64,000 nucleotides of DNA from Candidatus Omnitrophota bacterium (GTDB taxonomy: Bacteria > Omnitrophota > Gorgyraeia > Ghiorseimicrobiales > Ghiorseimicrobiaceae). Below are positions 21,146-63,468 of the stretch, one piece after another. The notes beneath the pieces were generated by a model, which worked only from the letters and a program-made list of their open reading frames with translations, had not been told where the DNA came from and did not search any database. The first letter of the stretch is position 1, and each line of letters starts with the position of its first letter. The stretch covers positions 133,708 to 197,707 of the forward strand of contig JAUXSB010000037.1 in the NCBI GenBank assembly GCA_030681595.1, read 5' to 3'. Both the position numbers and the translations under genes were made by a program.

Positions 21146-21249
21146 TGGGCAGGAGAGGGTTCGAACCTCTGAAGCATTGCGCAGCAGATTTCAAGTGTCC
21201 GCCACTACTTCTTTGGCGGACAGTCGCCAACGCTTTGTGGCGACTGCCC
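21146..21249 (-). ncRNA. 104-nt tRNA-like structured RNA of unknown class
   Basis: Minus-strand RNA with a 5' GGGCAGU pairing a 3' CCUGCCC-A, and a perfect T-arm AGAGG-UUCGAAC-CCUCU. Two long internal hairpins (6-bp and 7-bp stems) fit no canonical D or anticodon arm. No CCA is encoded. Confidence 0.3.
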
Positions 21250-21387
21250 TTAAGTTACCTCAAGGCTTGGACTATCTCATCACCATAGCTTTATGTTTCT
21301 TAGCTTTAGGCGGTAGGCGCTTAGTCTCTGCACCTTCACCCCTTCTTGTTTTCACAAGAAAGCAGGGGCGCTTGGCTCAGGATTGCC

Positions 21388-22092
21388 CTAAGATTTTAGG
21401 GTTTCCCTGAATTCACCTACTTTTTCATCTAACCTTTCGGTAAGATGCTGCATTTTATACAGTCTGCCCCCTTTGGCCGCTTGGGTACCTGCCCAATCTT
21501 TTATAAATTTATCTGTCCAACTTTTAATTAATCCAAGTAATCGCTTATCATTATAGCGGATATGCACTAATCCATAAAGTAATTTTCTTTTGCTTAAATT
21601 AAGATTACCTATTCGTATATAAGGTTTTGTAAATTGGTTTAATGGTATTTGTGTTATTTTGTGCCAGTAGATTTTTAACTGATCAATGTTTTGATATGAA
21701 TAAGCATATAAATAAATTCGCAATCGTTCTTCTTGAACGCCGCAAATCTCGCGTAAGAATCGCAGGAAAACTTTTATCATTTCTGGATTGCTGTTAGCAA
21801 AGTCTACTGTATTACCGTGGAATGTCCCTTCTGCCCAATAGAGCATTAATCCAGATATTTTTAGGTTTTGTTCTAAAATACTAAGTTTTTCTTTGGTTTT
21901 AAATTGCGGTTTATGTTTATTGTTGAGATAGTTTGCCTCTGATAATGACCGCCTAGGTATTTTATTTTTATTCATAAAGTTATATAAGGACCAAACGGAA
22001 ATGCCTAACCTATGCGAAACTTCTTCAAGATTAAATTGATTATTCCAGTATAGGTTTTTAATTTTCGCTATGTTGGGGTTTTTGTTTGGCAT
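21388..22092 (-). CDS. HTH plus LAGLIDADG-like putative homing-endonuclease-like protein
   Basis: N-terminal HTH (LEEVSHRLGISVWSLYNFM). The segment GLMLYWAEGTF...KVFLRFLREI resembles a LAGLIDADG motif with its following helix. Located between tRNA genes. Weak call. Confidence 0.35.
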   Translation of the reverse strand: MPNKNPNIAKIKNLYWNNQFNLEEVSHRLGISVWSLYNFMNKNKIPRRSLSEANYLNNKHKPQFKTKEKLSILEQNLKISGLMLYWAEGTFHGNTVDFANSNPEMIKVFLRFLREICGVQEERLRIYLYAYSYQNIDQLKIYWHKITQIPLNQFTKPYIRIGNLNLSKRKLLYGLVHIRYNDKRLLGLIKSWTDKFIKDWAGTQAAKGGRLYKMQHLTERLDEKVGEFRETLKS

Positions 22093-43353: not shown

Positions 43354-43358
43354 ATTAT

Positions 43359-43402
43359 ATTGAGAAATGTAAAACTAACGGAACTTCTTCGCATACGAAA
43401 TT
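43359..43402. repeat. 44-nt repeated intergenic element ATTGAGAAATGTAAAACTAACGGAACTTCTTCGCATACGAAATT (copy 1, gatA-gatB spacer)
   Basis: A second copy at 45252-45295 matches about 39 of 44 bases. It contains the internal inverted repeat GTAAAACTA/TAGTTTTAC. The adjacent GCGTACCTCTATAA segment also recurs, at 45558-45571. Confidence 0.6.
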
Positions 43403-43421
43403 CCAGTAGTTTTACGTACCT

Positions 43422-44894
43422 CTATAATTTGGGTTTTATTTTTCTCCAATTTGTTTGGCTTTCATAAGCAAATGCTGCTTTAAATAGCATTTCTTCGTCA
43501 AATGGCTTGGCAATTATCTGCAGTCCTACGGGTAATTTCTCTTTTGTAAAGCCGCAGGGAATAGAAATCGCCGGAACGCCCGCTAAATTTACCGAAATCG
43601 TATATATATCCGAAAGGTACATTTTTAGAGGGTCGGTGGCCTTTTCTCCTATTTTAAAGGCCGGTGTGGGAGAAGTCGGGGTAATAATACAGTCAATTTC
43701 TTTAAAGGCCGTATCGAAATCACGTTTTATTAAAGTGCGCACCTTTTGCGCCCGAAGATAATAGGCGTCATAGTAGCCGCTGGATAAGACATACGTTCCT
43801 AATATAATACGCCGCTTTGCTTCGTTTCCGAAACCTTCACCGCGGCTGTTCTTATACATATCGATTAATCCGGAGCTGTTCATTTGGCGAAAGCCATATT
43901 GAACTCCGTCAAAACGCGCCAGGTTTGAACTTGCTTCGGCGGTGGCGACAATGTAATAAACCGCGACCGCATATTCGGTATGCGGCAGCGATATTTCGAT
44001 GAATTTAGCACCTTTGGTTTTTAAGGTTGCTATCGCTTCATCCATAGCAGCCTTAACTTCATTATCCATGCCGTGCGTAAAATACTCTTTAGGTAAGCCC
44101 ACGCGTAGATTCTTTATTTCTCCGTTTAGGGATTTCGTAAAGTCCGGAACTTCAATGTTGGCGGAGGTGGAATCTTTAGGGTCGTAGCCGGAAATAATAT
44201 TCATCATCACGGCGCAATCACGCACATCCTTAGTGATAGGGCCGATTTGGTCAAGGCTTGAGGCAAAGGCAATCAATCCGTAGCGCGAAACCCTGCCGTA
44301 GGTCGGCTTAAGCCCAACTACCCCGCAGAATGCCGCCGGCTGCCGGATTGAACCGCCGGTGTCTGAACCAAGGCTTATTATTGTTTCATCCGCCGCTACT
44401 GCCGCGGCAGACCCTCCGCTTGATCCGCCGGGAACGCATTCGAGATTATGCGGGTTTCTCGTTGGGCCATAAGATGAATTTTCCGTTGATGAGCCAAAGG
44501 CAAATTCGTCCATATTGGTCTTACCCCAAAGGATTGCCCCGGCATCCTTTAGCCGCCGTATTACTTCAGCATCATATGGCGGTTTAAACCCGGAGAGGAT
44601 TTTAGAAGCACAGGTCGTTTCGTCATCTTTTACGCAGATATTATCTTTAATAGAAACCGGTATTCCCGAAAGGGGCCCGGAGCGGATAGTAAGGTTACAG
44701 TTTTCTGTTTGCGGCTTTGGCCAATGGAAGCCAAACCACTGCCCTCTGGCTTGCGGCTTCTTAGCAAAGGCATGGACTTTTTTCTCTACTGCTTCAACGC
44801 GTTTGGCTAAAGAGCTAACGAGCTCTTCTGTGCCATGCTTTTGCCCGGTAATTTCGCCGGCGGTGAGGGAAAAAAGGTCTTTTTTGTTATCCAT
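43422..44894 (-). CDS. gatA: Glutamyl-tRNA(Gln) amidotransferase subunit A
   Basis: Amidase signature family ([12 protein letters not shown]). 490 aa. Confidence 0.9.
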
Positions 44895-45197: not shown

Positions 45198-45221
45198 TTT
45201 CTCCTCGCAATATATCTAACT

Positions 45222-45249
45222 AATATATCACTAATCCCTAAAAAGTCAA
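45222..45249 (-). promoter_or_regulatory. Candidate sigma70 promoter for gatCAB (TTGACT-16-TATATT on the minus strand)
   Basis: Hexamers read from the sequence about 25-50 nt upstream of the gatC ATG. Confidence 0.3.
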
Positions 45250-45251
45250 CT

Positions 45252-45295
45252 ATTGAGAAACGTAAAACTAATGGGATTTCTTCGCACACGAAATT
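45252..45295. repeat. 44-nt repeated intergenic element, copy 2
   Basis: ATTGAGAAACGTAAAACTAATGGGATTTCTTCGCACACGAAATT, matching 43359-43402. Confidence 0.6.
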
Positions 45296-45393
45296 TTTTG
45301 CCGTCTATTTCATCTTACGTCTTTAGGTGTTACGCTCCATAGAAGATTGTCGCTACACCTCCGCCGTAATTCCTCATAGACCCGCCAGACCGA

Positions 45394-45435
45394 CCGCGCC
45401 CGAACGACGTTCGGTCGGGCGGGAGTCGGGCTGGC
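45394..45435. repeat. GC-rich ~42-bp element, copy 2 (CCGCGCCCGAACGACGTTCGGTCGGGCGGGAGTCGGGCTGGC)
   Basis: Matches 14496-14537. Embedded in a roughly 190-bp GC-rich island in the gatC-upstream intergenic region. Followed by the inverted repeat CCAATGGT...ACCATTGG. Confidence 0.6.
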
Positions 45436-45661
45436 TTTTGCCAATGGTTCGACTACGCTCACCATTGGCACTGAGCGGAGTCCTGAGCTTGTCGAAGGAC
45501 GAAGTCGAAGTGCCAAAAAATTTCTTATTGTGCGCTTTCATAAATTCCATTATTTTTGCGTACCTCTATAAGATGCGGGTATTTTTTAGTTCTTGTCCTT
45601 ACGCCGCAGAAGTAGTTTTTGAAAGCGCTTTCAGAAATAATGGGATTTTTGTCCTTAGCCA

Positions 45662-45690
45662 TTGAAATTACTTATGGCGTGTGCTATATT
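45662..45690 (+). promoter_or_regulatory. Candidate sigma70 promoter TTGAAA-17-TATATT
   Basis: Consensus-like hexamers with 17-nt spacing, about 35 nt upstream of the riboswitch-like element. Confidence 0.35.
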
Positions 45691-45724
45691 TATTAAAGAT
45701 ACGAAAAACGTTCTTTAAAAATCA

Positions 45725-45830
45725 ATCAGCAAAGGTAAACTATCTGAAAGGGTAGGGCGCAAAGCCGCGAGTCTAACTCTCTATAAATAATGGAGATACG
45801 ATTGTCGGGCTGCCGTATTCCAGCGTTCGT
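45725..45830 (+). ncRNA. Candidate c-di-GMP-I (GEMM) riboswitch aptamer
   Basis: AAAGGUAAACUAUCUGAAAGGGUAGGGCGCAAAGCCGCGAGUCUAA parallels the Vibrio Vc2 aptamer segment AGGGCAAACCAUUCGAAAGAGUGGGACGCAAAGCCUCCGGCCUAA. Shared elements: GNRA-loop hairpin, GCAAAGCC junction, CUAA. A second hairpin and an intrinsic terminator follow. Confidence 0.45.
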
Positions 45831-45847
45831 GGAATCCGTAAAGCGTA

Positions 45848-45873
45848 GCCCATTCTTTCGAGTGGGCTTTTTT
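45848..45873 (+). terminator. Intrinsic terminator/attenuator hairpin GCCCATTC-TTTC-GAGTGGGC plus T6
   Basis: 8-bp stem (one G-U) followed by TTTTTT, lying between the aptamer-like region and the downstream ORF start. Confidence 0.5.
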
Positions 45874-45947
45874 CGTTTGTCCGCCGCATATCGCGGCGGA
45901 TGCCTTTGCTGGTCATTTTCTTAGAAATGAGCTAGGTGGAGGCAAAA

Positions 45948-46241
45948 ATGAAAAGAATAACGTTAACTGGGGTGTTACTGGTAACGATACTGATTATTAG
46001 CAGTGGATTAGTTTATGCGGGCGATAGCCAGACAATCGGCATTTCCTGCACTATTCCTTTAATTCCCGGTGTAAATGCCCCGCTTAATACGACAGAAGTA
46101 CCGGCTATAGTAGAAGAAGATATTAGTTTTCAGGCCGAAGCAGCAGCTGTGGAAACAGCCAATGAAGGCAAGCAGTTGCAGATAGTAGAAAAACAAAAAG
46201 GTTCGGATAATTTAGAGCTTTATACTTATTATCAAAAATAA
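45948..46241 (+). CDS. Small secreted protein (signal peptide)
   Basis: AGGTGGAGG RBS 7 nt before the ATG. MKRITLTGVLLVTILIISSGLVYAGDS looks like a signal peptide. 97 aa. Confidence 0.45.
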   Translation: MKRITLTGVLLVTILIISSGLVYAGDSQTIGISCTIPLIPGVNAPLNTTEVPAIVEEDISFQAEAAAVETANEGKQLQIVEKQKGSDNLELYTYYQK

Positions 46242-46283
46242 TTCTTAAAAAATTCCCACCTGCCACGGAAGGGATTAAAATAG

Positions 46284-46316
46284 AAAACGCACGGGTTAAA
46301 AACCGTGCGTTTTTTT
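46284..46316. terminator. Bidirectional rho-independent terminator AAAACGCACGG-GTTAAAAA-CCGTGCGTTTTTTT
   Basis: Perfect 11-bp stem flanked by an A-run on one side and a T-run on the other. Sits between convergent genes. Confidence 0.7.
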
Positions 46317-46336: not shown

Positions 46337-49147
46337 TTATTTTATTTTCTTAAGCGGAATATTATAACTAACACTAACCCCCTCACCCAGTTCAATCTCT
46401 TTTGAAATTGCCGCCTGCGGCAGGTACTCTATCGGCAGGGTATTTATATCCATATTAAAATTGTGTTTTCCGGGTGAAATTCTTCTAAAGAAATAACGCC
46501 CGGAATCATCAGTAGATATTTCTATGTTGTCATCAAGGGTTATTTTTACTTTACCTACCCCCTTATCTTTAGGGCTTAATTTTCCGTCACCGTCGTTATC
46601 TAAGAATATTACGCCGATAATTTCAGAATTAGCGCTGATTCCGAAATTAACCTCACTCGCCCTGCCATGACGCAGAGGCACAGATTGCGCTGCCGGGACC
46701 GTCAAGATGTAACCGCTTGGTATGGTCGTTGTATCAACGGAAATATCTACCTGTTTAGCTTTTATTTTATTGAAACGGAAACGGCCAAAGATATCGGTAG
46801 TTGCCGACTTCTCAGGGCCAAGATAAACCTTAACTCCTTCAACCGGCGGTTCGTCATTCTGCCTTAGGCCGTCGGAATTTAAATCTTTATAGATTATCCC
46901 CTCTATATTTCCAATTGTAGGCCATTTTATTCCTGTATCCCAGAGATAGCGCATTCCGGCGCGGAAATCCACCTCGTTTCTTTTAAGCACATCGGCTTTA
47001 TCCGCCCAGACATTTCGCATCCTGCCGGAAATATATGCCTCGGTACCCGGGCTGGGCCTGTAATTTAGCTCCGAGTAACCCTCTAGGTAATCTTCGCCTG
47101 AGAGAAAACTTAAAGTTGCTTCGGCGTCTTGTTCGTCGCGGTAGCTTAGCCTGATATTCCCGGTAAATTTAGAGTCAAGAAATTGCCTTGACCAGTCAAT
47201 TCCGGTTTCCCATGCGTGCGGCTTGGCGAGCTTTCCGGTCATTTTTTCTCTGGTCCAGTTCATTTCTTTACTGATACGGTAATATAGGCCGGCGACAAGC
47301 GGTAAACTAAAGCCGGAAATCAATTTATTTGCCTGATAACTTAAGCTTGTGGCGCTAAAGTTACTTGCGTCGGTAAATTGATAGGTAAAATAAGACGAAA
47401 GTTTTCTTAATTTTTCAAAAGTATGCGAGAATGATATCAAACCGTTATGGCTGCGGAATTCAGAGATACCACCCAGCTCATTTTGCAGCGAGTAATCGAA
47501 CTGCAAGGTGGTAAAATCATCAAATTTATAATTATTCTTAAAGTCAAAATCTTCGTTAAAACGCGTGGGATTATCTTCACTGGGAAATAACCTGTTACGG
47601 AAGATGTCTAAGCGCAGTGCGCTTTTTAGCTTAGGTGTGATATCGCTTTCAAGATTAAAGAGGCCGCCTAATTCTCCCGCGCGTGAAGCAAGCCCGACAA
47701 TAGTGTAAAAGTCCTGATCAATATCTCTTAATTCGCTTGAAAACCTTAAATGCGGCTGGAGGTATTTTACGGTTAATAGCTGGGCATAGTAGTCAGTATC
47801 ATTAGCGAATTCATATTCATAACCCCAGTCTTTGAAACCTTTAGTTAATTGAAAATCGTAAGTATAATCCGGGAGATATCCTTCGCGGTCATTACCCCAG
47901 CCGTGGAATACTGATATTCCATAGAAGTCTTTCTTGCCGGGCTTAAAGGAGACGCTTGCTCCGGAAAGAAACCTGTCTCGTAAATCTGATAGCCCCGGTG
48001 AGAGGTTTCCGAATCTGCCGCCCCCTTCTCTTCCCCAGAATACTTCATAATTTAGATTATCACCTAAGATCGGATTATCAATAATGCCTAAAGGCGACCC
48101 AAGGTTAACTCCCCTTAGGGCGTTTGAGCCTGAAGCAAGATTCCGGACAGTCGGAGCAAAATCAAAGGCACGCAGGGAAAAATCTTTAAAATTAAGCCAT
48201 TCGCCGTCGTCTAACCCAACAGTAAAATAAGTAAGGTCCGTAGTTTCTCGTAATGACCTGACAATAAGCGAAGAATCCAGCTTACCGTAAGGGATAGCAC
48301 CGGTAAGCCCCAAAGAATGGCCATACGAATATGACTGACGATCTAACTTATCGAAACTTGGGCCCTGTTCAAAGGATGACCAATCAATGCTATAACGCAG
48401 CTTGAAATTTTTCTCCCTCGCTTCTTCGGCGAGCATTTCTTCTTCGTAGGTGGGGCCTTCGGGTTTGGGTTGCACTCCTAAAACTTGTAAGGTCCAACGA
48501 CCGTTATCATCCCAGACATGCAGGTAGGTATAGCCGATATTTTTGCCGGTAACTGAAAGTTCATCGGTATTTTTTTTCTCTAAAGTTAGAATCTCCGGCT
48601 GGGTTGCCAAAAACCTCCTGATATTCTTACCCGAAACAATAATGCTTTTGCCTTGTTCTATTTCGAAAGGCTGAATTAGATCAGCGAAATTTTCGTCAAG
48701 GTATAGTATTTTGGGCGCGGCTGGTATTTGTGGCAGCGTGGATTTTACTTTTTTAACAAGAGCCGGTGCGGTAGATGAGGCCGCCTTTTCCTTAAGGCGG
48801 AAATCCGCTTCCTTTTCTAATTTTTCTATTTCCAAGAGCTCCAAGGTGTCGCTTACCTCGACTAGGCGCGAGCTTTTTTCTTCTTCGGGGGTTATTTCTT
48901 GTCGGTGTAGGTCTAGCGACAATTCTCCCTTTTCAATTATGCGGATATATTTAATAGCAGGCTGGTAGCCCGGCTCAACAAGCAGGGCTTTTTTAAATTC
49001 ATGCAGGGCCTCGTCGTATCTGCCGGCGTTATATAATTGTATGCCGATTTCGCATAAAAAAGCGGGAGCTTCTCTAAAAGCGTAAAGGGTTATATGAGAC
49101 GAGGTTAAAAGTACGGATATAGCCAGCGTTATAAATATTTTTTTCAT
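46337..49147 (-). CDS. Large outer-membrane-type protein: signal peptide, TPR-like region, pilus/secretin-N-like domain, beta-barrel-like core, two C-terminal SdrD-B/Cna-B-like domains
   Basis: PEILTLEKKNTDELSVTGKNIGYTYLHVWDDNGRWTLQV matches the pilus-formation/secretin N-domain pattern. Alternating aromatic beta-strands in the core. Two DxDGDG...TTD..G.Y.F repeats near the C-terminus. 936 aa. Confidence 0.45.
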   Translation of the reverse strand: MKKIFITLAISVLLTSSHITLYAFREAPAFLCEIGIQLYNAGRYDEALHEFKKALLVEPGYQPAIKYIRIIEKGELSLDLHRQEITPEEEKSSRLVEVSDTLELLEIEKLEKEADFRLKEKAASSTAPALVKKVKSTLPQIPAAPKILYLDENFADLIQPFEIEQGKSIIVSGKNIRRFLATQPEILTLEKKNTDELSVTGKNIGYTYLHVWDDNGRWTLQVLGVQPKPEGPTYEEEMLAEEAREKNFKLRYSIDWSSFEQGPSFDKLDRQSYSYGHSLGLTGAIPYGKLDSSLIVRSLRETTDLTYFTVGLDDGEWLNFKDFSLRAFDFAPTVRNLASGSNALRGVNLGSPLGIIDNPILGDNLNYEVFWGREGGGRFGNLSPGLSDLRDRFLSGASVSFKPGKKDFYGISVFHGWGNDREGYLPDYTYDFQLTKGFKDWGYEYEFANDTDYYAQLLTVKYLQPHLRFSSELRDIDQDFYTIVGLASRAGELGGLFNLESDITPKLKSALRLDIFRNRLFPSEDNPTRFNEDFDFKNNYKFDDFTTLQFDYSLQNELGGISEFRSHNGLISFSHTFEKLRKLSSYFTYQFTDASNFSATSLSYQANKLISGFSLPLVAGLYYRISKEMNWTREKMTGKLAKPHAWETGIDWSRQFLDSKFTGNIRLSYRDEQDAEATLSFLSGEDYLEGYSELNYRPSPGTEAYISGRMRNVWADKADVLKRNEVDFRAGMRYLWDTGIKWPTIGNIEGIIYKDLNSDGLRQNDEPPVEGVKVYLGPEKSATTDIFGRFRFNKIKAKQVDISVDTTTIPSGYILTVPAAQSVPLRHGRASEVNFGISANSEIIGVIFLDNDGDGKLSPKDKGVGKVKITLDDNIEISTDDSGRYFFRRISPGKHNFNMDINTLPIEYLPQAAISKEIELGEGVSVSYNIPLKKIK

Positions 49148-49150
49148 CGT

Positions 49151-52100
49151 TTAATATTTATTTCCGCCAAAAATAACTTTTTTATCTGCCGTAACAAACC
49201 ATATCTGATTTGCGATCCTGACCCTCCAAAAAGGCTTATACGGAGAATCCGAGACCTTCCCCGGCTGCCAGACGAGTTCGGCGGAAACTTTATTATAACC
49301 TATTTTCTTATAGCGCCTTGCTTTACGCTGCGCAAGCTGTATCGCCTCAGATTTTTTAAGTATGCGATAAGGTGCGGGCTTTTTTACCCAAGAAGCCTCC
49401 TTAAAAGATAAGTACTTGCCCTCAAGGATTAAAGCTACTGATGCCAACTGGCGCTTACCCCATATTTTATCAAAAGGAATCAAATAATAAAAGCTATTTT
49501 TTGAATTAAGTATTCTTACTTTATAAGGCCGGCGCATACGCGTATCGTTAAAGGCGGCGTTAAATTCATCGTCTTTTAAGAGTACCGGGTCAATAATTGC
49601 TTTCCAGTCAAAATTTTCAAGTTGCCTTAAGATGGCCGGATCCAATTCTTTGTCGGGCGATACTTCAGCGCTTTTTCTTGCTAAAGAGCATAATTTTCTA
49701 TTTAATTTTTTAAGCGGTATCCGGCGGATGCTTGTCTTTGCGCGGGTCTCTTCTTCGGGAGGCTCAGCCACAGCGATGTATTTCGCGTTCCAGTTATCAT
49801 TTGTTGCCATGGGTAGATAATAGGTATTTTGTAATTCCGCGGCAGTCTTATAGGAATTCTCCCCTATCCCGGAAACAGCCGGATCATTCAGCCAGAAACC
49901 ATAGACACTGAAATTCGCGGGTTGAAAAAGATTCTGGTTCGCGTTGGGGTCTTGGCTTGCGGCAGCACCTTTTACGACCATCCAGTTATCATATCTGCCG
50001 AAGGTAGGAATAACTACCGGGATATTTTTTATTAAAGCCCCGGGAACTTCATAATCCATCCAATGGGCAATATCGCGCAGGGCATTAGCGATATTTGTTC
50101 CGGAAATAATCTCAAAATTATAAACTTGGGGTTTAAAATAATTTAAGGTACTTTTTACTTGCTCGGCGGTTAAGTCGTTTACCCCGATTGAAGTGTAGCC
50201 ATATAATTGGTTTTGGGTTAGGGTCGCGTCTTGGCTTAGGTAATCTAAAACCATCTTACAGGAGGCAGGAGCGCTGTAATAACTTTTTTCCTCTTGATAC
50301 CATGGTATCGGTAAAACAAGTACCCATTCAGGGTTTACCGGGTCAAGCGGAATAGAGTCTATGCTATCTAATTTTCCGTCATCGTCGGTATCCTTGTCCA
50401 AGGGGTCGGTGTTTTGAGCTAATTCGTTTATATCTGTTAGGCCGTCGTTATCGCGGTCAATATCGATATTATCGGCAATGCCGTCTTTGTCTAGGTCTAA
50501 AACGATGGTTAAATTAGCTTCTATTTGTGTTGGTACCAACTCGCCCAAATTATCAGAATTATAGCCTTCGGCTAAATTTCCCGGCCTGCCCTTTATGCTG
50601 ATCATTGCCCATGTATCATTATCGTTAACGATTCGAATAAGATTACTGCCCAGTGATTCTATGGCTTGATAAGCCGCTTCTCTATATAAAGAAGGCACGC
50701 CTAACCCCGCATCAAGGGCAACCGAGGCAAGGATAATTTTTTCGCTTGCGATATTTAGAATAAAGTTTTTTAAATAAAGCAGGGCGTCAGAATCGGAAGA
50801 TGAGTCAAAATTGTGTACTTCCTCAACTAAACCGGTTTTTGGATCAATAATGGCAAAATTAAAACCCCTGCCGCTAGCATAACCGATTTTATCGTAAAAC
50901 CGTTCACCGTTTTTAAAAAACTGGGCATTTATGTAGGAAACCGCCGTTAAGGTAAGGTTTACGGGTAGATTTACGTATTGGCCCTGTTTTTTGTACCTGT
51001 CGCCGACGGTAAAGTATGCCTGGCGTTTTGTACGGTTTATATCCAAAAGGCCATAGTATTCTTCATTGCTGATATTGTCCGGGTTGGCATAGGGGTTGTA
51101 ATTTCCGCTTGCGTCATGGGTGAATGGCGAAGACATTTTCCACCACTCATCGTTTAATTCAAAAAAACTCACCCCTAAACACGGCTCATTGGGCCTGTCT
51201 GCTGAAAAATGGAAATATACCTCATCAAAAAGGCCGGCGGCAAAGTCTGCCTGCATTTGGGGGTTCTCGTTAGATATGCGGCTGTCATAGGCGTCGGTCC
51301 CTGCTTCTGAAATAAACATCGGTTTAGGGGAAATTTGCCCCCATTCATAAAAAAGGCCGCCGAAACTACCGGAGCGGTAAACATTCAACCCCCAGATATC
51401 TATTGAAGGGCATCGCTTGGCGACAAAATACTCAATTACCGTATTACCGTAGTCTTCTCCTTCTTTTGGGATGGTAAAATATATTGAATCAGCCAAAATA
51501 GAAGTAACCGGATGATAGGGGTCTAATTGCTTAATCTTTTGCGCCGCCTGTTCGGTAAAGTTTAAAACATCTTCAAAATTAATAAAACTAAGATAATAAA
51601 AATTAAGATTCCATTCATTGCCGATCTGCCAGGCAAGTATTGCCGGATGGTTTTTAAAATTGGAAACAACCTGATCAATGTTGGCTGAATTAGCAATAGA
51701 ATCATCCACACACATAATTACCATAATGCCGTTTCTGTAGAGTTCGTCTAAAATTTCGCTGAAAGTTAGTAAATCCGTTCCAAAATCAAGATAGGTCCTT
51801 ACGGTATTTACCCCCATATCTTTCATCAGGGCAATATCCTGTTTGTACCAATTTTTAAATTCTATTTCGCGGCTGACAATGTCGCCGGCACCCGGGTTAC
51901 CGATTGAAGCCGGCGACCAGCATATGCCTTTAATCTTATAGGGAATAGGCCCGCTATTAGAAGAAGGCCTTTGCATTAAAAGCTGCCTTCCCTTTACTTC
52001 AATAGAGCTTATACCTTGGGGAGGAGTTTGGGTAGTGTAATATATAGAATCAACGGCAGGACGGTTTAAGCTACCCATTATGTAGCCCGCGCTATTTTTA

Positions 52101-52447
52101 AAACGTACAAAGACAGTTTTTAAGCCTTCAGTGTTACTTAATAGCCAGTTTTTACTCGCCTGATACGGCTCCCAGAGGGACCAATTTTGCCCGTCATTTG
52201 AGAAAGACGTTTCCGTAACAGCATATTGCGGGTCAAATGCCGCAAGATTTAGGATAACGCTCTGTGAGGAGGTAACCAGCGCGCCATTATTAATATTGAT
52301 ATTGCCGCGAAGGTAGTTATTATCGTAAGAAAAGGCTGTTGTCGTAAAGGCAGTAGTAATAAAGAAGGATAAAAAAACGGCCAAAAACAATAAAAAAAGA
52401 GGCGCCCTGTTTTCCGCGGCCCTCTTCCTTAAAAATATTTTTTCCAT
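49151..52447 (-). CDS. Large secreted multidomain protein: GH-like TIM barrel, thrombospondin-type-3 Ca-binding repeats, degenerate peptidase-C39-like domain, PepSY-like tail
   Basis: Signal/TM N-terminus. MGVNTVRTY...NEP motifs look glycoside-hydrolase-like. DLDKDGIADNIDIDRDNDGLTDINE...DKDTDDDGKLDSIDS are TSP3-like repeats. YYSAPASCKMVLDY...NWMVVKG resembles C39_2 with the Cys shifted and His changed to Asn. 1098 aa. Confidence 0.45.
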   Translation of the reverse strand: MEKIFLRKRAAENRAPLFLLFLAVFLSFFITTAFTTTAFSYDNNYLRGNININNGALVTSSQSVILNLAAFDPQYAVTETSFSNDGQNWSLWEPYQASKNWLLSNTEGLKTVFVRFKNSAGYIMGSLNRPAVDSIYYTTQTPPQGISSIEVKGRQLLMQRPSSNSGPIPYKIKGICWSPASIGNPGAGDIVSREIEFKNWYKQDIALMKDMGVNTVRTYLDFGTDLLTFSEILDELYRNGIMVIMCVDDSIANSANIDQVVSNFKNHPAILAWQIGNEWNLNFYYLSFINFEDVLNFTEQAAQKIKQLDPYHPVTSILADSIYFTIPKEGEDYGNTVIEYFVAKRCPSIDIWGLNVYRSGSFGGLFYEWGQISPKPMFISEAGTDAYDSRISNENPQMQADFAAGLFDEVYFHFSADRPNEPCLGVSFFELNDEWWKMSSPFTHDASGNYNPYANPDNISNEEYYGLLDINRTKRQAYFTVGDRYKKQGQYVNLPVNLTLTAVSYINAQFFKNGERFYDKIGYASGRGFNFAIIDPKTGLVEEVHNFDSSSDSDALLYLKNFILNIASEKIILASVALDAGLGVPSLYREAAYQAIESLGSNLIRIVNDNDTWAMISIKGRPGNLAEGYNSDNLGELVPTQIEANLTIVLDLDKDGIADNIDIDRDNDGLTDINELAQNTDPLDKDTDDDGKLDSIDSIPLDPVNPEWVLVLPIPWYQEEKSYYSAPASCKMVLDYLSQDATLTQNQLYGYTSIGVNDLTAEQVKSTLNYFKPQVYNFEIISGTNIANALRDIAHWMDYEVPGALIKNIPVVIPTFGRYDNWMVVKGAAASQDPNANQNLFQPANFSVYGFWLNDPAVSGIGENSYKTAAELQNTYYLPMATNDNWNAKYIAVAEPPEEETRAKTSIRRIPLKKLNRKLCSLARKSAEVSPDKELDPAILRQLENFDWKAIIDPVLLKDDEFNAAFNDTRMRRPYKVRILNSKNSFYYLIPFDKIWGKRQLASVALILEGKYLSFKEASWVKKPAPYRILKKSEAIQLAQRKARRYKKIGYNKVSAELVWQPGKVSDSPYKPFWRVRIANQIWFVTADKKVIFGGNKY

Positions 52448-52479
52448 TACTTGGTAATTTTTTTCTAGCGCTATTTTTT

Positions 52480-53358
52480 CTATTTTAGCTCTCCCACACT
52501 TAAAATCCTTCCTCCTGTGCCAATTTCAATCTGGGCTTCTTTGGTAACTACTGGGCCGCCTTTACCTATTTTTAATTCCGCCAAAGCCAAGCCGAAATCT
52601 AAGGTAATCACTAAATCATACTTACCCGGCGCTAAATTTTCTTTCCATATGCCGGTTAACTGTGCCTTATCATTAGGAAAGGTGTAAATTTTATCAAATT
52701 CCCCGCGGGCGACAACCATACCCTGCCTATCCATAAGATTAAATGTGCCTCCGGCAGTAATATCTACGTTGCCGGTATTGGCAAAATCTAACTTTATGGA
52801 AAGCGGCGCATCTTTGCCGGCATTTTCTACCTTAAAATTATCTAAAACCCCGGTGCGTTTTATAGTCCCCTCTGCTTCAACATAAAATAAAGTAGCGATT
52901 CTTACATTTAAACCTATGCCTGCGGCAGTCCCTTCCGCGGTTTCCTCTAATTTGCTTAGCGCGATTTCAAAAAATAGCGCGGCATAATAACCGCCAAGGG
53001 ATCCTTCCGGCATTCTGATGGTATAACTTATTCTCTGGCGGCTATGCGGCCTAAGGATAAAATCTGCCGGGCTAAAGCTTATCCAAGGGCTTGCGGAATT
53101 ATTCAGGCTCGCCGCAGGCAGGAATTCCTTTGTGCCGTCTTGCGACGGAACATAATGCCAGTCTTCTAAGTATAACTGTATATGACGTTCCTCGTCTGAA
53201 GGGTTTTCCAAGGTTATTTCTCCAGAGTTTTGCTTCCCTGGAACAATGGAAACTCTCACTTTTGGCTTATCCATAAAAGGAAGGCTTATTGCCAAGCAAG
53301 AGTTGGCAAATGAAAGAAAAAAACTCAAAAAAAGAATTATTTTTTTAAAATGCCGCAT
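52480..53358 (-). CDS. Secreted protein, possibly a pilus-chaperone-like Ig-fold protein
   Basis: Signal peptide. Beta-rich pattern (VSIVPGKQNSGEITLENPSD...LFFEIA) loosely resembles PapD-like chaperones. Weak call. Confidence 0.25.
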   Translation of the reverse strand: MRHFKKIILFLSFFLSFANSCLAISLPFMDKPKVRVSIVPGKQNSGEITLENPSDEERHIQLYLEDWHYVPSQDGTKEFLPAASLNNSASPWISFSPADFILRPHSRQRISYTIRMPEGSLGGYYAALFFEIALSKLEETAEGTAAGIGLNVRIATLFYVEAEGTIKRTGVLDNFKVENAGKDAPLSIKLDFANTGNVDITAGGTFNLMDRQGMVVARGEFDKIYTFPNDKAQLTGIWKENLAPGKYDLVITLDFGLALAELKIGKGGPVVTKEAQIEIGTGGRILSVGELK

Positions 53359-53456
53359 TTACTTCCTTTTTTAGAGAATGGGGATAGCGTTACATTAAAT
53401 ACACGCTACCCCCATTTATGTGTAAAAGCGTTATTTTTACATTCTTCTCTTTAGAA

Positions 53457-54095
53457 TTACGGTGTAAGCGTAATCGTTACCACGCCGCTGTAAAGACCAG
53501 CTTGTTTATCCGCACCAACAGGAACAACTCCCGTGTTATCCGGTTTTAAAGGATTACCGGTGCCAATCCCGTAATAGATTCTCATCCAACCCGGAGAAAT
53601 AGCGGTCTTGGTATATGCTTTACCAGTCATCGCAGCAGCGTAGCTTACCGCGCCGCCTGTTAACGGAGTATCGGTTGTGCTAGTTCCGCTTCCCGTTACT
53701 TTCACAAAAGTAGCATTGATGTTATTGTTTAGGTTGTTAATTCCATTGGCAATGCTTGTTCCGGTCTGCGTGAGCGTCCAAACTGTTCCGGTATTATCGG
53801 TAACTCCGATATCCACGGCGTAGTAAATCGCAGGTGACGGGACAAAGATTTTATTTACAGTGTCGTAAACTAAAGTGCCAAAGGCCATCGGTGAAAGAGC
53901 TGGCAAGGCTAGCCACGTATCTGCTGCGCCGCCAGTACCTACAGTAACTTTAGAAATACCTACGCTCAACGAACTGGAAACCGATTGAACGGTAGCAGTT
54001 ACATTGATGGTCTGTGAAACTGCGGCAAAAGAAACCGCGCACAGTGTTAATACCATAACTACAGCCATAATCGTTGTAAATAGCTTAGTTTTCAT
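53457..54095 (-). CDS. SCPU-domain/Csu-type fimbrial-subunit-like secreted protein
   Basis: Signal peptide, T/G/V-rich beta strands, and a C-terminal ...AGLYSGVVTITLTP motif like the SCPU (spore-coat-U/Csu pilin) terminus. 212 aa. Confidence 0.4.
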   Translation of the reverse strand: MKTKLFTTIMAVVMVLTLCAVSFAAVSQTINVTATVQSVSSSLSVGISKVTVGTGGAADTWLALPALSPMAFGTLVYDTVNKIFVPSPAIYYAVDIGVTDNTGTVWTLTQTGTSIANGINNLNNNINATFVKVTGSGTSTTDTPLTGGAVSYAAAMTGKAYTKTAISPGWMRIYYGIGTGNPLKPDNTGVVPVGADKQAGLYSGVVTITLTP

Positions 54096-54136
54096 TATGA
54101 TTCACCCCCTTTCCTATGAATTTTTGAAATTTTTCC

Positions 54137-54177
54137 GTGTTTAATCTGTGTAATCTGCTTTTAACTTAGTGTAATCG
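54137..54177 (-). promoter_or_regulatory. GATTACAC direct-repeat boxes (minus strand: GATTACAC-N14-GATTACACAGATTAAACAC)
   Basis: Lies 40-80 nt upstream of the SCPU-like gene. The same GATTACACAGATTAAA core recurs at 58405-58420. Confidence 0.4.
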
Positions 54178-54180
54178 TTT

Positions 54181-55605
54181 TTATATCTCCAATAAAGAAT
54201 AAGTAATCCGCGTAGAGTAATCCCCGGCCTTTAAATCTTTAGGACATTCTAATTCATAAATAATCTTAAATTTGTCAGGGGAGCCTTGATTGTCAGAGCT
54301 GAAGAGAATAGCGTCTCCTTTTTTGACAACTCCTTTATCGGAAAACCTCAAGTTTCCTTTTGTATTGATACTTTCTGTGCGTAGGTGAAAATAATCATTA
54401 GGTATAGTATTGCCCTGTTTGTCGGTTAAGTCGGAAAGCACGTTCTGGGTTATCTGGTATGGCTTGGCTAAATTTGTCTTTACCTCTATGGTTACCTCAT
54501 TTATCCGGGGAGGAGTCTCGGCTTTTAAATCCGTAAAAGCTATGCCCCAGCCTGTTTCCGAGGTAATTTCTAAGTCAAAGATTTTATCGTTCTCAACTTG
54601 AAGATGTAATGTTTCAAGCAGGCCGCTTTCGATATTACCTGTGCCCTCAAGGATATATTTTATTTTTGTAGCATATTTTCCGGGTTTTTCTGATGAGATA
54701 TCGCTAAGTACATAGCTAACCACGAAATTATCGCTTGCTCCATCCGGGCTTGAGCTATAAATTAGCTGTTCTTTCTTTGTCAGCACCGTCGGCTCAAGTA
54801 CAGCAACACCTTTTTTGTTTTCGCTAACCGCAAAACTCACTACTTCTAACGGCAACTCTATTCCTTCGTTGGACATAAGCGCTTCAGAAATGACTTGGGC
54901 AATTTTAAATTGCCTACCTAAACCGCCGATTATCTGAAAAGAAACTTCAAAACTGTGCTTTTGCGCATCTGCCTGTTTTAAGAAAACATTTTTTGAGCTA
55001 TCCTGAGTCTGGATTTTTATCGCTCCCTCTTGGGAGATTTCTACGAAGATATTTAGAATTAACGTACTTGATGATACTCCTGATTCTATCGGCTCTAAAG
55101 TGTAACTTATCCTTCCACGGTAGGAGCCGGCAGCTATATTTTCCGGAATAAGGCGGTATGCCAACTGGAATGAGTCTTGAGCGCCTTGTGGGTTAGATGT
55201 GTAGATAACGGTTCTGTTAGGACTTATGGGTATTTCATTAATAACTGAAAGGGTTCCATAGGTATTTGTTCCGCGGATAGCATAGACAAGCAGGTCTCCG
55301 TAAGGGATTTCCGCGCCGGTTTCATCGGCAAGCGGTTCTAATATTTGCTGGATAACTCTGTATTGCTTAGCAATGTCAGTAGTAGCTCTAACCGTAACTT
55401 CTTTATTCAGCGGGGGTTGGTTTTTTGCGGAAATGTTGCCGAATCGTATATCTTGTCCGCCCTCAAAAGGAGTAACAGATATACTAAAAGCGGCAAAAGA
55501 TTTACCGGCAGTTATAGTTAAAATAACCAGGAGAAAGGTTAAAAAAGGATAAATTTTTGTAGGTAGGGTATTTTTCTCTTTCATCTCGGGATGCCTTTCA
55601 AACAT
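54181..55605 (-). CDS. Secreted protein with three internal ~95-aa repeats
   Basis: Three paralogous segments (AKQYRVIQQILEPL...; LGRQFKIAQVISEAL...; LAKPYQITQNVLSDL...), each ending in a (S/T)Y.L motif. The first ATG overlaps a -10-like hexamer, so the likely start is the second Met at 55584 (MKEKNTLPTKIYPFLTFLLVIL). Confidence 0.45.
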   Translation of the reverse strand: MFERHPEMKEKNTLPTKIYPFLTFLLVILTITAGKSFAAFSISVTPFEGGQDIRFGNISAKNQPPLNKEVTVRATTDIAKQYRVIQQILEPLADETGAEIPYGDLLVYAIRGTNTYGTLSVINEIPISPNRTVIYTSNPQGAQDSFQLAYRLIPENIAAGSYRGRISYTLEPIESGVSSSTLILNIFVEISQEGAIKIQTQDSSKNVFLKQADAQKHSFEVSFQIIGGLGRQFKIAQVISEALMSNEGIELPLEVVSFAVSENKKGVAVLEPTVLTKKEQLIYSSSPDGASDNFVVSYVLSDISSEKPGKYATKIKYILEGTGNIESGLLETLHLQVENDKIFDLEITSETGWGIAFTDLKAETPPRINEVTIEVKTNLAKPYQITQNVLSDLTDKQGNTIPNDYFHLRTESINTKGNLRFSDKGVVKKGDAILFSSDNQGSPDKFKIIYELECPKDLKAGDYSTRITYSLLEI

Positions 55606-57642: not shown

Positions 57643-58260
57643 CTAATTTAAATTGACTGGATACTCTAACTTTTTCTTTACGGTTGTGACAAATTCACTA
57701 ATCGCGAAAGGCTTATAGATGCAGTCTGTAATATTTAACCGGTCAGCTTTTTCTTCGGCTGTCGTATCCATATATCCGGTGATAAGGATTTCTTGCGGCA
57801 AGGCTTGTTGAGATTTACAATAAAAGTCCCTGATTTTTTCTATGGTATCAACACCATCCATTCCGGGCATTCTAATATCCATGATAATCAAGTCAAAGGC
57901 CGATCGTTTTACTTTTTCCAACGCCTCTTCGCCGCTTTTGGCTGATTCACTATCATAGCCGAAGGCTTTTAACAGTTTTGTAATTGACTTTAGCACAAGC
58001 TGGTCATCGTCAACAATCAAGATATGTTTAAGGTCAGGCTCGGTTTCTTTACCTTCTGTTAACGGCTCATCCGGAGACGGATTAATAAATCCCGATTCTT
58101 TCATGGTAAGCCATTTATCTAAACTGGATTTACGAAATCGTAGTTGTTTACCGATTTTTACTGAAGGAATTTTTCCTGTTTCGGAAAGTTTATAGAGCGT
58201 GCTTTTAGAGATGTTTAGATGCGCGGAAACTTCATTTAACGTGAAAAACTCATTTTCCAT
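57643..58260 (-). CDS. Response regulator with reversed architecture: N-terminal HTH_17 DNA-binding domain plus C-terminal receiver domain
   Basis: LNEVSAHLNISKSTLYKLSETGKIPSVKIGKQLRFRKSSLDKWL is the HTH. Then ILIVDDDQLVLKSI...DLIIMDIRMPGMDG is the REC domain with its phospho-Asp. 205 aa. Confidence 0.65.
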   Translation of the reverse strand: MENEFFTLNEVSAHLNISKSTLYKLSETGKIPSVKIGKQLRFRKSSLDKWLTMKESGFINPSPDEPLTEGKETEPDLKHILIVDDDQLVLKSITKLLKAFGYDSESAKSGEEALEKVKRSAFDLIIMDIRMPGMDGVDTIEKIRDFYCKSQQALPQEILITGYMDTTAEEKADRLNITDCIYKPFAISEFVTTVKKKLEYPVNLN

Positions 58261-58608: not shown

Positions 58609-59067
58609 ATGGATAATCAAACCCAAGAAAAAAATCCCGGCACTCTTTCGGCAATAGATAAGCCGCCGAGGAAACCTTTTAAGGTGGTTAAATACGCCAT
58701 CATCCTTCTCCTCGGGGTTTTCGCGGCGAAGTTTTTATTCTCTTTTTTAGATGCTAGGTTATCGGAACAAAAAAAAGCGCAAAAACCTCGCCAGAAAAGT
58801 ACTATAAACACGGCCGAGAAAGTTATCGCGCCGCCACCTCCTTTAAAGAAGGTGATCGTCGAGCGTATAAAACCCACGGAAAAGACAATCCCTCCGGAAT
58901 TGGTATTAAACGGCATTGCTGCCAGCGGCTCTGACGGTTGGGCGATTATTGATGATAGAGTCGTTAAGGCGGGTGATACGATTAAAGGAGCCGAAGTTGT
59001 GGGGATTTACGCTGACCGCGTAGACTTAAAGTTTGAAGGCGGAACCTTTTCTCTTTCAATTAAGTAA
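58609..59067 (+). CDS. Membrane-anchored protein with C-terminal GspC-HR/PilP-like beta domain
   Basis: One TM helix, a Pro-rich linker, then LVLNGIAASGSDGWAIIDDRVVKAGDTIKGAEVVGIYADRVDLKFEGGTFSL. 152 aa. Weak call. Confidence 0.3.
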   Translation: MDNQTQEKNPGTLSAIDKPPRKPFKVVKYAIILLLGVFAAKFLFSFLDARLSEQKKAQKPRQKSTINTAEKVIAPPPPLKKVIVERIKPTEKTIPPELVLNGIAASGSDGWAIIDDRVVKAGDTIKGAEVVGIYADRVDLKFEGGTFSLSIK

Positions 59068-62412: not shown

Positions 62413-63468
62413 CTATTTTAACTGCAAGTATTTTTTTGATTTTTTAGCCAACCTTAAAAAGGAGTCTACAACTTCCGGGTCAAACTGCGTACCTTTATAT
62501 TTTTCTATTTCCCCAATCGCCTCCTTTATGCTGATTCGTTCCCTGTAGGGCCGGCCGTAAACCATTGCTTCAAAAGCATCTGCCACTGCCATAATACGGG
62601 CGCCGATAGGAATCTGGCCTTTTTTTAATCCGGAAGGATATCCTGTGCCGTCATATTTTTCATGGTGATGCATAATTATCGGTAATGCCGGGCGGAGTAC
62701 CTGTAAATGCTTGATAATTTCAACGCCCTTTAATGGATGATCTTTAATAATATTGAACTCTTGGCAGGTTAGTTTTTCCGGTTTAGCGAGTATCTCAGAA
62801 GGGATATTAATCTTTCCGGCATCATGTAAAAGAGTCGCATATTCTAAGCTGCATATTTCTTCTTCGCCTAAATGCATTTCTCGGGCGAGTGAAAGGACAA
62901 GGCGTAAAAAATTAGAAGTATGGGTGTAGCCGCGGGCGGAGCGGATATCCAAAAGCGTAACCAAAGACTTAATGCTTCCCATGATTGTCCTTTGCTGTTC
63001 TTCATACAGCTGCAGGTTCCTTATCGCCATTATCGCTTGAGATGAAATATTAAGGAGTATCTCCTGGTCAAATTGTTCAAAAGGCTCGGTTTTTTTACTC
63101 CGCCGCATGATTATAATACCCATGAGGTCTTCTCCGATCAAAGGAATACCAATAATGTTTCCATTATATGTAGCGCTTCCGGAGCGGATAATTTTTAGCT
63201 CAAGGCGGTTGGTAATTGAAATACGTTTATTAATTACGCATCTTTTTCTCGGAGTAACTACCGCTCTTAGGTAAGAATATTTTTTTATAGGGTCAAGCAG
63301 GGCAATGGAACAATAATCTACAGACATAATCTGGCTGGTTAGGCGCGCAAGGCGTAAAAGCAGGTTTTTTAAATCAAAGGTGGAGTTAATAAGGCGATAG
63401 ACAGCATGCATTGCCGCAAAAGCCGTCTTATACTTTTTCATAAGGATCGAATAATTTTTTATACTCAT
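62413..63468 (-). CDS. GAF-domain plus HD-GYP phosphodiesterase
   Basis: HD motif (LLHDAGKI) and HHEKYDGTGYPSGL (GYP motif), preceded by a GAF-like domain. 351 aa. Confidence 0.75.
   Translation of the reverse strand: MSIKNYSILMKKYKTAFAAMHAVYRLINSTFDLKNLLLRLARLTSQIMSVDYCSIALLDPIKKYSYLRAVVTPRKRCVINKRISITNRLELKIIRSGSATYNGNIIGIPLIGEDLMGIIIMRRSKKTEPFEQFDQEILLNISSQAIMAIRNLQLYEEQQRTIMGSIKSLVTLLDIRSARGYTHTSNFLRLVLSLAREMHLGEEEICSLEYATLLHDAGKINIPSEILAKPEKLTCQEFNIIKDHPLKGVEIIKHLQVLRPALPIIMHHHEKYDGTGYPSGLKKGQIPIGARIMAVADAFEAMVYGRPYRERISIKEAIGEIEKYKGTQFDPEVVDSFLRLAKKSKKYLQLK

Follow-up and report, generated by a model that had tools for sequence, protein, structure and literature searches.

The leader and coding region of a small secreted-protein gene were analyzed in a 64,000-nucleotide (nt) stretch of DNA from a Candidatus Omnitrophota bacterium (contig JAUXSB010000037.1), hereafter called the window. 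Upstream of this gene lie a promoter, an aptamer of the cyclic dimeric guanosine monophosphate (c-di-GMP)-I riboswitch class (GEMM-I), an intrinsic terminator and a Shine-Dalgarno (SD) region, in the order expected of a cis-regulatory leader that ends in an open reading frame (ORF). The expression platform has strands in common with the aptamer, in that its alternative pairings recruit aptamer strands. The features of the leader and the gene, in window coordinates and with the basis of each assignment, are as follows.

45662 to 45690, + strand: σ70-type promoter, TTGAAA-17 nt-TATATT carrying an extended −10 TG (agrees with the consensus at 10 of 12 positions)
45724 to 45817, + strand: c-di-GMP-I (GEMM-I) aptamer, type 1 (RF01051 match, position mapping and covariation)
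45725 to 45736, + strand: 5′ flank of the aptamer, AUCAGCAAAGGU, which includes G20; proposed anti-anti-SD strand (12-base pair (bp) duplex with 45902 to 45913)
45746 to 45760, + strand: tetraloop, 3′ strand of helix P1 and junction (GAAAGGGUAGGGCGC); proposed as antiterminator strand A (pairs over about 12 bp with the 5′ arm and loop of the terminator)
45807 to 45813, + strand: 3′ strand of helix P2 together with C92 (GGGCUGC); proposed antiterminator strand B (pairs with 45845 to 45851 in the minimum free energy (MFE) structure)
45818 to 45834, + strand: intervening hairpin UUCCAGCGUUCGUGGAA, enclosed by antiterminator B (folding)
45847 to 45873, + strand: intrinsic terminator, stem AGCCCAUUC/GAGUGGGCU (45847 to 45868), loop UUUC, U6 to 45873 (terminator search)
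45880 to 45900, + strand: second GC-rich hairpin, UCCGCCGC-AUAUC-GCGGCGGA, without an adjacent U tract (folding)
45901 to 45914, + strand: anti-SD segment UGCCUUUGCUGGUC (complementarity with both the 5′ flank of the aptamer and the SD region)
45930 to 45945, + strand: SD region, with GGAGG at 45938 to 45942 (sequence and duplex computation)
45948 to 46241, + strand: gene for a 97-amino acid (aa) putative secreted protein, ATG at 45948 and stop at 46241 (ORF)
46255 to 46273, + strand: conserved motif CCCACCUGCCACGGAAGGG (comparison of loci)
46284 to 46313, no strand assigned: bidirectional terminator hairpin with T runs on both sides, common to the small gene and a convergent gene for a 936-aa protein (terminator search)

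When the entire window was searched against Rfam 15 with cmscan, positions 45724 to 45817 (+) matched the GEMM-I model RF01051 with 70.2 bits (E = 9.9e-12), which is twice the gathering score of 35 bits. The alignment spanned model positions 1 to 87 of 87 with no non-canonical pairs flagged, and the match was reproduced with permissive filters. It was the sole riboswitch that the Rfam 15 scan found in the window, and the c-di-GMP-II class gave zero matches there. The aptamer contains a GAAA tetraloop at 45746 to 45749, and its receptor-like UCUAAC...AUACGA, a motif read by eye, aligns with the model columns CUAA...UAUGA. When the sequence was mapped onto the covariance model, the equivalents of G20, A47 and C92 of the Vc2 aptamer were G45734, A45761 and C45813, respectively. 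In GEMM-I aptamers, A47 contacts the ligand by intercalation. The two guanine-reading bases are G20, which pairs with Gα of c-di-GMP, and C92, which pairs with Gβ (PMC6140456). Positions 20, 47 and 92 are G, A and C, respectively, in all 19 related aptamers (AAAGGY..., GCAAAR and UGCC/UACC), and 10 of the 19 predicted aptamer pairs showed compensatory double changes that keep the pairing in an RNAalifold analysis of 17 related aptamers. Because the equivalents of G20 and C92 are present, and GEMM-Ib has A at position 20, the window RNA is by its sequence a canonical reader of c-di-GMP, which it is predicted to bind, and neither a GEMM-Ib nor a "GGC" variant. A preliminary description of this stretch had proposed a GEMM-I aptamer here, together with an Infernal search against RF01051 as its check; the score of that search, the covarying helices and the canonical contact bases bear the proposal out. 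The promoter, the hairpin that follows the aptamer, the terminator with its T6 run and the ORF for 97 aa with an apparent signal peptide were likewise found at the positions given there.

A scan of one genome per species, using a 35-sequence subset of the alignment of the small-protein family, yielded 17 loci, nearly all of which were labelled Omnitrophota, and further leaders of the window's lineage were collected from contigs encoding family members with similar C-termini (loci are numbered with the prefix L). At 16 of the 17 genome loci, a GEMM-I-clan match above the Rfam gathering score was located 5′ of the small gene on the same strand; at the 17th, L014, the aptamer is present by eye, its junction being enlarged by two additional hairpins. 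Every one of the 17 loci has a terminator 3′ of the aptamer as well. The close relatives L001 to L004 have the same aptamer as the window, L005 and L006 (about 32 to 46% identity across the alignments) have a GEMM-I-clan aptamer of a different architecture, and the aptamer also lies upstream in L144, L145, L147 and L148. A pattern scan of metagenomes with AAAGGTAAACN{14,18}GGGCRCAAAGC gave 120 GEMM-I loci, none with the small-protein family; this pattern was too generic. The aptamers of L014 (5400 to 5528) and L021 (3146 to 3292) have insertions of 50 to 70 nt that form extra hairpins between the 3′ strand of P1 and the GCAAAG junction. Owing to these insertions L014 is under the Rfam gathering score, and L021 reaches only 36.6 bits.

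The riboswitch class is well known and a copy of it can be found by a routine Rfam scan, and the RNA itself is not a discovery. What is new is its target, an unannotated family of secreted proteins of about 100 aa that stands behind a c-di-GMP riboswitch and beside the same gene cluster at every Omnitrophota locus examined. This phylum-wide link of a riboswitch to a small-protein family appears to be undescribed. The Omnitrophota are uncultured, often ultra-small, and suspected of being attached to or preying on other cells. A search of full-text literature on Omnitrophota or Omnitrophica together with riboswitches or c-di-GMP, with subscription journals outside its coverage, returned nothing relevant, and the main genomic survey of the phylum makes no mention of c-di-GMP, riboswitches or this locus (PMC10066038). 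The locus thus offers a concrete and testable c-di-GMP output in Omnitrophota, a candidate attachment system, and a compact natural leader that seems to unite termination and translational control.

Several parts of the leader recur in relatives. The CCTTGAAA-N17-TATAnT promoter layout was also seen by eye 5′ of the aptamer in L001, L005, L014, L144, L145, L147 and L148. The intervening hairpin is found with a differing sequence in L007, L144, L145 and L147, and L007 retains the second GC-rich hairpin with altered base pairs (by eye). Upstream of the promoter, the intergenic stretch between gatC and the promoter (45198 to 45660) is approximately 350 nt longer than in L007 and contains GC-rich inverted repeats. 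It has short repeats of 30 to 55 nt in common with 14483 to 14537 and 43358 to 43427 (85 to 90% identity), a pattern suggestive of a small repeat dispersed among intergenic regions.

A strong intrinsic terminator, often followed by a second one, begins 0 to 30 nt past the aptamer in all 19 of the leaders studied, and in none of them does the terminator stem include aptamer nucleotides. Termination can therefore proceed while the aptamer is folded around its ligand, and to block it, one of the terminator arms has to pair elsewhere. The aptamer itself contains strands suited to such pairing. In window transcripts ending before the 3′ arm of the terminator, GGGCUGC (45807 to 45813) pairs with GUAGCCC (45845 to 45851) in the MFE structure, and this antiterminator B conformer had a free energy of −38.5 kcal/mol, compared with −25.2 kcal/mol when the aptamer was enforced. 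As a second option, GAAAGGGUAGGGC, comprising the tetraloop, the 3′ strand of P1 and the junction, pairs with GCCCAUUCUUUC in the 5′ arm and loop of the terminator. The resulting duplex (GAAAGGRUAGGGC with GCCC(A)UUCUUUC) occurs in the same register in six of six type-1 leaders with −13 to −17 kcal/mol, and 0 to 19 of 300 shuffles were as good in these six. Analogous but weaker pairings occur in type-2 leaders, and some of these differ in a compensating manner: in place of GUUGCC:GGCAAC in L005, L023 has UACC:GGUA (by eye), and an 8-bp pairing was present in the prefix MFE structure of L008. From these predicted pairings, c-di-GMP most likely promotes termination. Without c-di-GMP, 45746 to 45760 or 45807 to 45813 would pair with the 5′ arm of the terminator (45843 to 45859) and RNA polymerase would read through. 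When c-di-GMP is bound, the flank and the antiterminator strands would be locked in the aptamer and the terminator at 45847 to 45873 would form. Most type-2 leaders (L005, L008, L009, L015, L016, L018 and L020 to L023) have tandem intrinsic terminators, AAACCCUAAAG...CUUUAGGGUUUUUU and then GCCCCGGC...GCCGGGGCUUUUUU; the sequence of the first is conserved across lineages.

A second set of competing pairings concerns translation. The flank AUCAGCAAAGGU is fully complementary over 12 bp to GCCUUUGCUGGU (45902 to 45913), with −18.1 kcal/mol and none of 300 shuffles as good, and the anti-SD segment that contains this strand is also complementary to the SD region, with −15.2 kcal/mol. Duplexes of the flank with the anti-SD segment of −14 to −19 kcal/mol were obtained for six of seven type-1 leaders (0 to 1 of 300 shuffles as good), that of L144 being weaker, and compensatory changes from C:G to A:U (L007 and L145) and from C:G to G:C (L147) were found in them. 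Across the type-1 leaders, the anti-SD segment pairs with the SD region with −9.5 to −17.8 kcal/mol. We infer a second, translational layer in the window's lineage, which would operate by a three-way competition, as the anti-SD segment can pair with either the flank or the SD region. Without c-di-GMP, the flank (45725 to 45736) would capture the anti-SD segment (45901 to 45914) and leave the SD region exposed, and with c-di-GMP, the flank would be locked and the anti-SD segment would mask the SD region in any read-through RNA. Both layers would turn the gene off at high c-di-GMP.

A hypothetical protein encoded on a 300-kb contig of a Candidatus Omnitrophota metagenome-assembled genome (locus tag Q8L26_06615) has the same sequence as the 97-aa protein, the N-terminus of which, MKRITLTGVLLVTILIISSGLVYA|GD, reads by eye as a signal peptide. 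An exhaustive profile search placed it in a family of 313 clusters at 50% identity, all of about 80 to 130 aa; a word-indexed search found four relatives only. The members follow a common plan, namely a signal peptide, a mature N-terminal AGDSxTxxVSCTIP(A/L)IPGVNAPL, a linker of variable sequence and acidic or polar character, and a C-terminal strand, mostly terminating in (V/I)YSR, with YSR or YQK endings. The family motif is SCTIPAIPGVNAP, and the C-terminus reads KTIYSR. The window protein gave zero matches to Pfam or NCBIfam, and a search of 80 family members against Pfam gave nothing credible.

The small gene occurs in two layouts, either directly 3′ of the leader, as in the window and some other loci, or with an extra gene in between, as in about a dozen loci. 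This extra gene encodes a conserved protein of about 75 to 90 aa (QRVVTFLNREEVDFLDKLGKDALFSTG...) without a signal peptide, which reads QRVVTFLNREEVDFLDKLGKDALFSTGxKLSRAKLIAW... and resembles a ribbon-helix-helix protein by eye; examples are L005 995 to 1222, L017 361 to 636, L019 5612 to 5878 and L023 479 to 706. No sequence match to it was obtained in Pfam or the PDB, and a search of the window for a homologue found none. The motif CCACC(U/A/G)GCCACGG(A/U)AGG also accompanies the small gene, in L001, L002, L005 to L008, L010, L013 to L015, L017 to L023 and the window, and is absent from L009, L011, L012 and L016. It is mostly located 30 to 250 nt 5′ of the start codon in one to three copies, in the window's lineage lies just past the stop codon, and can fold as a CCC/GGG hairpin whose loop contains the conserved bases.

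Directly downstream of the small gene and convergent with it, a surface-type locus extends over 46337 to 55605 (−). Its genes, and a more distant gene of c-di-GMP turnover, are as follows.

46337 to 49147, − strand: 936-aa secreted protein with TPR, T2SS-T3SS_pil_N and an SdrD_B/CarboxypepD_reg-like β-sandwich (Pfam)
49151 to 52447, − strand: 1098-aa protein with an ILEI domain, a GH2-like TIM-barrel fragment and a TSP3 repeat (Pfam)
52480 to 53358, − strand: 292-aa periplasmic protein with two immunoglobulin (Ig) domains and a PapD/WxLIP-like chaperone fold (AlphaFold2 (AF2) model with a predicted local distance difference test (pLDDT) score of 89.6, and Foldseek)
53457 to 54095, − strand: 212-aa secreted β-sandwich protein with an unstructured N-terminal extension, a candidate fiber subunit (AF2, pLDDT 90.1)
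54181 to 55605, − strand: 474-aa secreted protein with three repeats by eye and a weak CPR_Pam_pilin_C match (profile scan and tblastn)
62413 to 63468, − strand: HD-GYP-type phosphodiesterase gene (HD_5 with 147.7 bits, HHE and GYP motifs)

By tblastn of 18 loci, the small gene is convergent with a homolog of the 936-aa gene in every locus; homologs of the 292-, 212- and 474-aa genes come after it, and gatCA is often located 5′ of the riboswitch. The homologs of the cluster are hypothetical proteins found in Omnitrophota. The gene for the 1098-aa protein lies between the 936- and 292-aa genes in the window only, these two being adjacent in all other loci. An antisense effect on the 936-aa gene was ruled out on account of the bidirectional terminator between the two genes. 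Just beyond the cluster are a response regulator with an HTH_17 domain (57643 to 58260, −) and a small protein with weak matches to type II secretion system C/B-like domains (58609 to 59067, +).

The model of the 292-aa protein showed the fold of a PapD-like two-domain chaperone. Its top match in a Foldseek search of the PDB was WxLIP of Enterococcus faecium (3e-10), and CfaA, CsuC, FimC and Caf1M matched at about 1e-8 to 1e-7, with TM-scores, normalized to the target, of up to 0.63. In the model of the 212-aa protein, residues 19 to 41 are coil, and the first 20 or so mature residues are unstructured. This protein had no significant structural relative in the PDB, and the name pilin was not adopted for that reason. 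The proteins encoded at 46337 to 55605 contain neither an Usher domain (PF00577) nor a WxL domain by Pfam, and the cluster was therefore left out of the known families. Based on the predicted structures, it is a putative chaperone-assisted surface-fiber system to which no known family is assigned. In a profile comparison, the 97- and 212-aa proteins matched with 97% probability, mostly driven by the signal peptides.

The preliminary description had linked the riboswitch to a fimbrial or adhesin-like locus and to a GAF-HD-GYP phosphodiesterase nearby, and had judged this to fit the control of surface structures by c-di-GMP. A surface-type locus does adjoin the small gene, immediately downstream; since it is convergent and not co-transcribed, the riboswitch governs only the monocistronic gene for the 97-aa protein. 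That description named no direction of regulation, and the anatomy of the leader points to an OFF switch. The HD-GYP gene also exists, at a distance of approximately 16 kb from the riboswitch, and its GAF match is below the Pfam cut-off (17.6 versus 22.4 bits). It therefore shows only that the organism turns over c-di-GMP.

Taken together, the window carries a canonical type-1 GEMM-I riboswitch ahead of a monocistronic gene that encodes a putative secreted protein of 97 aa, and this riboswitch is likely to act as a two-level OFF switch. The identity of the aptamer, its contact bases, the terminator, the conserved complementarities and the phylum-wide linkage with the small gene and the convergent cluster are observed; binding of the ligand, the direction of the switch and the role of the protein are predicted. 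Several observations weigh against this interpretation. The full-length MFE structure flips between the flank:anti-SD and the anti-SD:SD pairing with the chosen 3′ end, and the computed accessibility of the SD region in the window was 0.18 with or without the aptamer bases blocked. Antiterminator A is modest compared with shuffles (19 of 300 as good in the window and 13 of 300 in L148), and several type-2 leaders gave alternatives of 3 to 4 bp only. Thermodynamic folds of the full leader hold the terminator with or without the aptamer constraint, and so the switch must act kinetically. For ligand binding as for direction, the evidence consists of predictions from sequence and folding. A further caution comes from Bc1 of the Bacillus cereus group (B. 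thuringiensis), a GEMM-I riboswitch with a long platform and two terminators that was unresponsive to c-di-GMP in vivo (PMC11218506).

Direction is the point on which the first alternative departs: with the same aptamer, c-di-GMP would prevent termination, and the small protein would be made together with adhesive structures at high c-di-GMP. High c-di-GMP usually favors adhesion, the gene adjoins a surface-type locus, and the terminator held by default in unconstrained full-length folds is the expected resting state of an ON switch. However, the terminator overlaps the aptamer in none of the 19 leaders, so that a bound aptamer cannot directly block it; the strands with which the terminator 5′ arm could pair instead are the very ones that the folded aptamer needs; and OFF is also the direction indicated by the way in which the flank and the SD region compete for the anti-SD segment. 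An ON switch is thus distinctly unlikely.

Bc1 and the tandem terminators of many Omnitrophota leaders would also fit a constitutive attenuator, in which the aptamer binds c-di-GMP, strong or tandem terminators mask the effect, and another factor regulates the gene, such as a protein that binds the CCACCUGCCACGG motif. This motif accompanies the gene, and many loci have the extra small conserved protein gene in between. In contrast, the aptamer, its contact bases and its linkage to the gene are kept with compensatory changes across lineages whose proteins are about 25 to 40% identical, which argues for selection on a working sensor, and the second hairpin of the window has no adjacent U tract. 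Such an attenuator appears highly improbable. That the aptamer recognizes another ligand, either 3′3′-cyclic GMP-AMP (3′3′-cGAMP) as in GEMM-Ib or that of the variant classes c-di-GMP-I-GGC or c-di-GMP-I-UAU, is scarcely credible, because, although many related loci score best on the GGC variant model RF03167, the window scores best on RF01051 and has G45734 where GEMM-Ib has A at 20 (PMC6140456), all 19 aptamers have G20, A47 and C92, and the RF03167 consensus is GCGAAgC, with G at 47, where the window and its relatives have GCAAAG or GCAAAA. The better RF03167 scores are probably due to the P1 and short P2 of that model and not to an altered binding site; a variant ligand was ruled out for those loci by the A at position 47 that all of them have.

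As to the function of the two-level OFF switch, our working guess is a modulation of the neighboring chaperone-type surface-fiber system by the small protein, which would be produced at low c-di-GMP and may have an N-terminal strand in common with the putative 212-aa subunit. Carried further, the riboswitch and the small protein would be the c-di-GMP input to an undescribed, phylum-wide surface-fiber system of Omnitrophota. Its components would be a PapD/WxLIP-like chaperone, a β-sandwich subunit whose N-terminal strand is free, a protein of three repeats and a large TPR/secretin-N/SdrD_B protein. With little beyond a subunit-like N-terminal strand and a C-terminal strand, the small protein would then serve, only at low c-di-GMP, as a chain terminator, cap or competitor, and the leader would be a coherent two-level switch whose ligand-binding 5′ flank doubles as the anti-anti-SD strand. 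Taken as a whole, this picture is unlikely. A comparison of the mature N-termini of the 97- and 212-aa proteins gave P = 0.0015 and 17% probability, which leaves the common strand of the working guess as a lead only. If the cap reading were true, high c-di-GMP would lengthen or stabilize the fibers. With the OFF direction, the simple idea that c-di-GMP turns surface structures on changes.

Elsewhere in the window, a group I intron (RF00028, 103 bits, 21248 to 21469) splits a type-II tRNA gene (21192 to 21494, −), whose acceptor stem is GGGCAGG/CCTGCCC and whose variable arm is long. In-silico splicing after ...GCAGACUGU and before AAAUCUGC gave the anticodon loop CUGUAAA, and ARAGORN called the product tRNA-Tyr(GUA); the unspliced gene was not found by ARAGORN. 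An ORF at 21388 to 22092 (−) overlaps the 5′ exon of the tRNA.

Among known systems, chaperone-usher pilus loci and Gram-positive WxL loci resemble the cluster in that its predicted two-Ig periplasmic protein matches the PapD family and WxLIP, and in the adjacent secreted β-sandwich proteins, one of which has a free N-terminal extension. The cluster differs from them in having no Usher or WxL domain by Pfam and in its large partner, which has TPR, secretin-N-like and SdrD_B domains. The GEMM-Ib riboswitches for 3′3′-cGAMP of Geobacter have the same fold and belong to the same Rfam clan, and they carry A at position 20, whereas the window aptamer and all of its relatives have G. Vc2 of Vibrio cholerae and other type-1 GEMM-I riboswitches have in common with the window the two-hairpin aptamer, the GAAA tetraloop, the GCAAAGC junction and G20, A47 and C92; they differ in host, the window being from Omnitrophota, in the target gene, and in the platform, which in the window consists of an intrinsic terminator and an anti-SD segment. 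Cd1 of Clostridioides difficile, a GEMM-I riboswitch upstream of the flagellar operon, is reportedly an OFF switch that terminates transcription, and switches of this type are the nearest functional analogs. As in the window, a separate intrinsic terminator is said to follow its aptamer, with c-di-GMP predicted to cause premature termination. Unlike Cd1, the window riboswitch has a single small secreted protein in place of a flagellar operon as its target and adds a predicted sequestration of the SD region in its lineage. For the multi-hairpin leader, the nearest functional analog is Bc1, whose leader is likewise long, with two or more hairpins or terminators 3′ of the aptamer, and which joins transcriptional to translational control, as is predicted for the window. 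The dual regulation by Bc1 was described as incoherent (PMC11218506), whereas the second hairpin of the window has no U tract and the two predicted layers would act in the same direction, turning the gene off.

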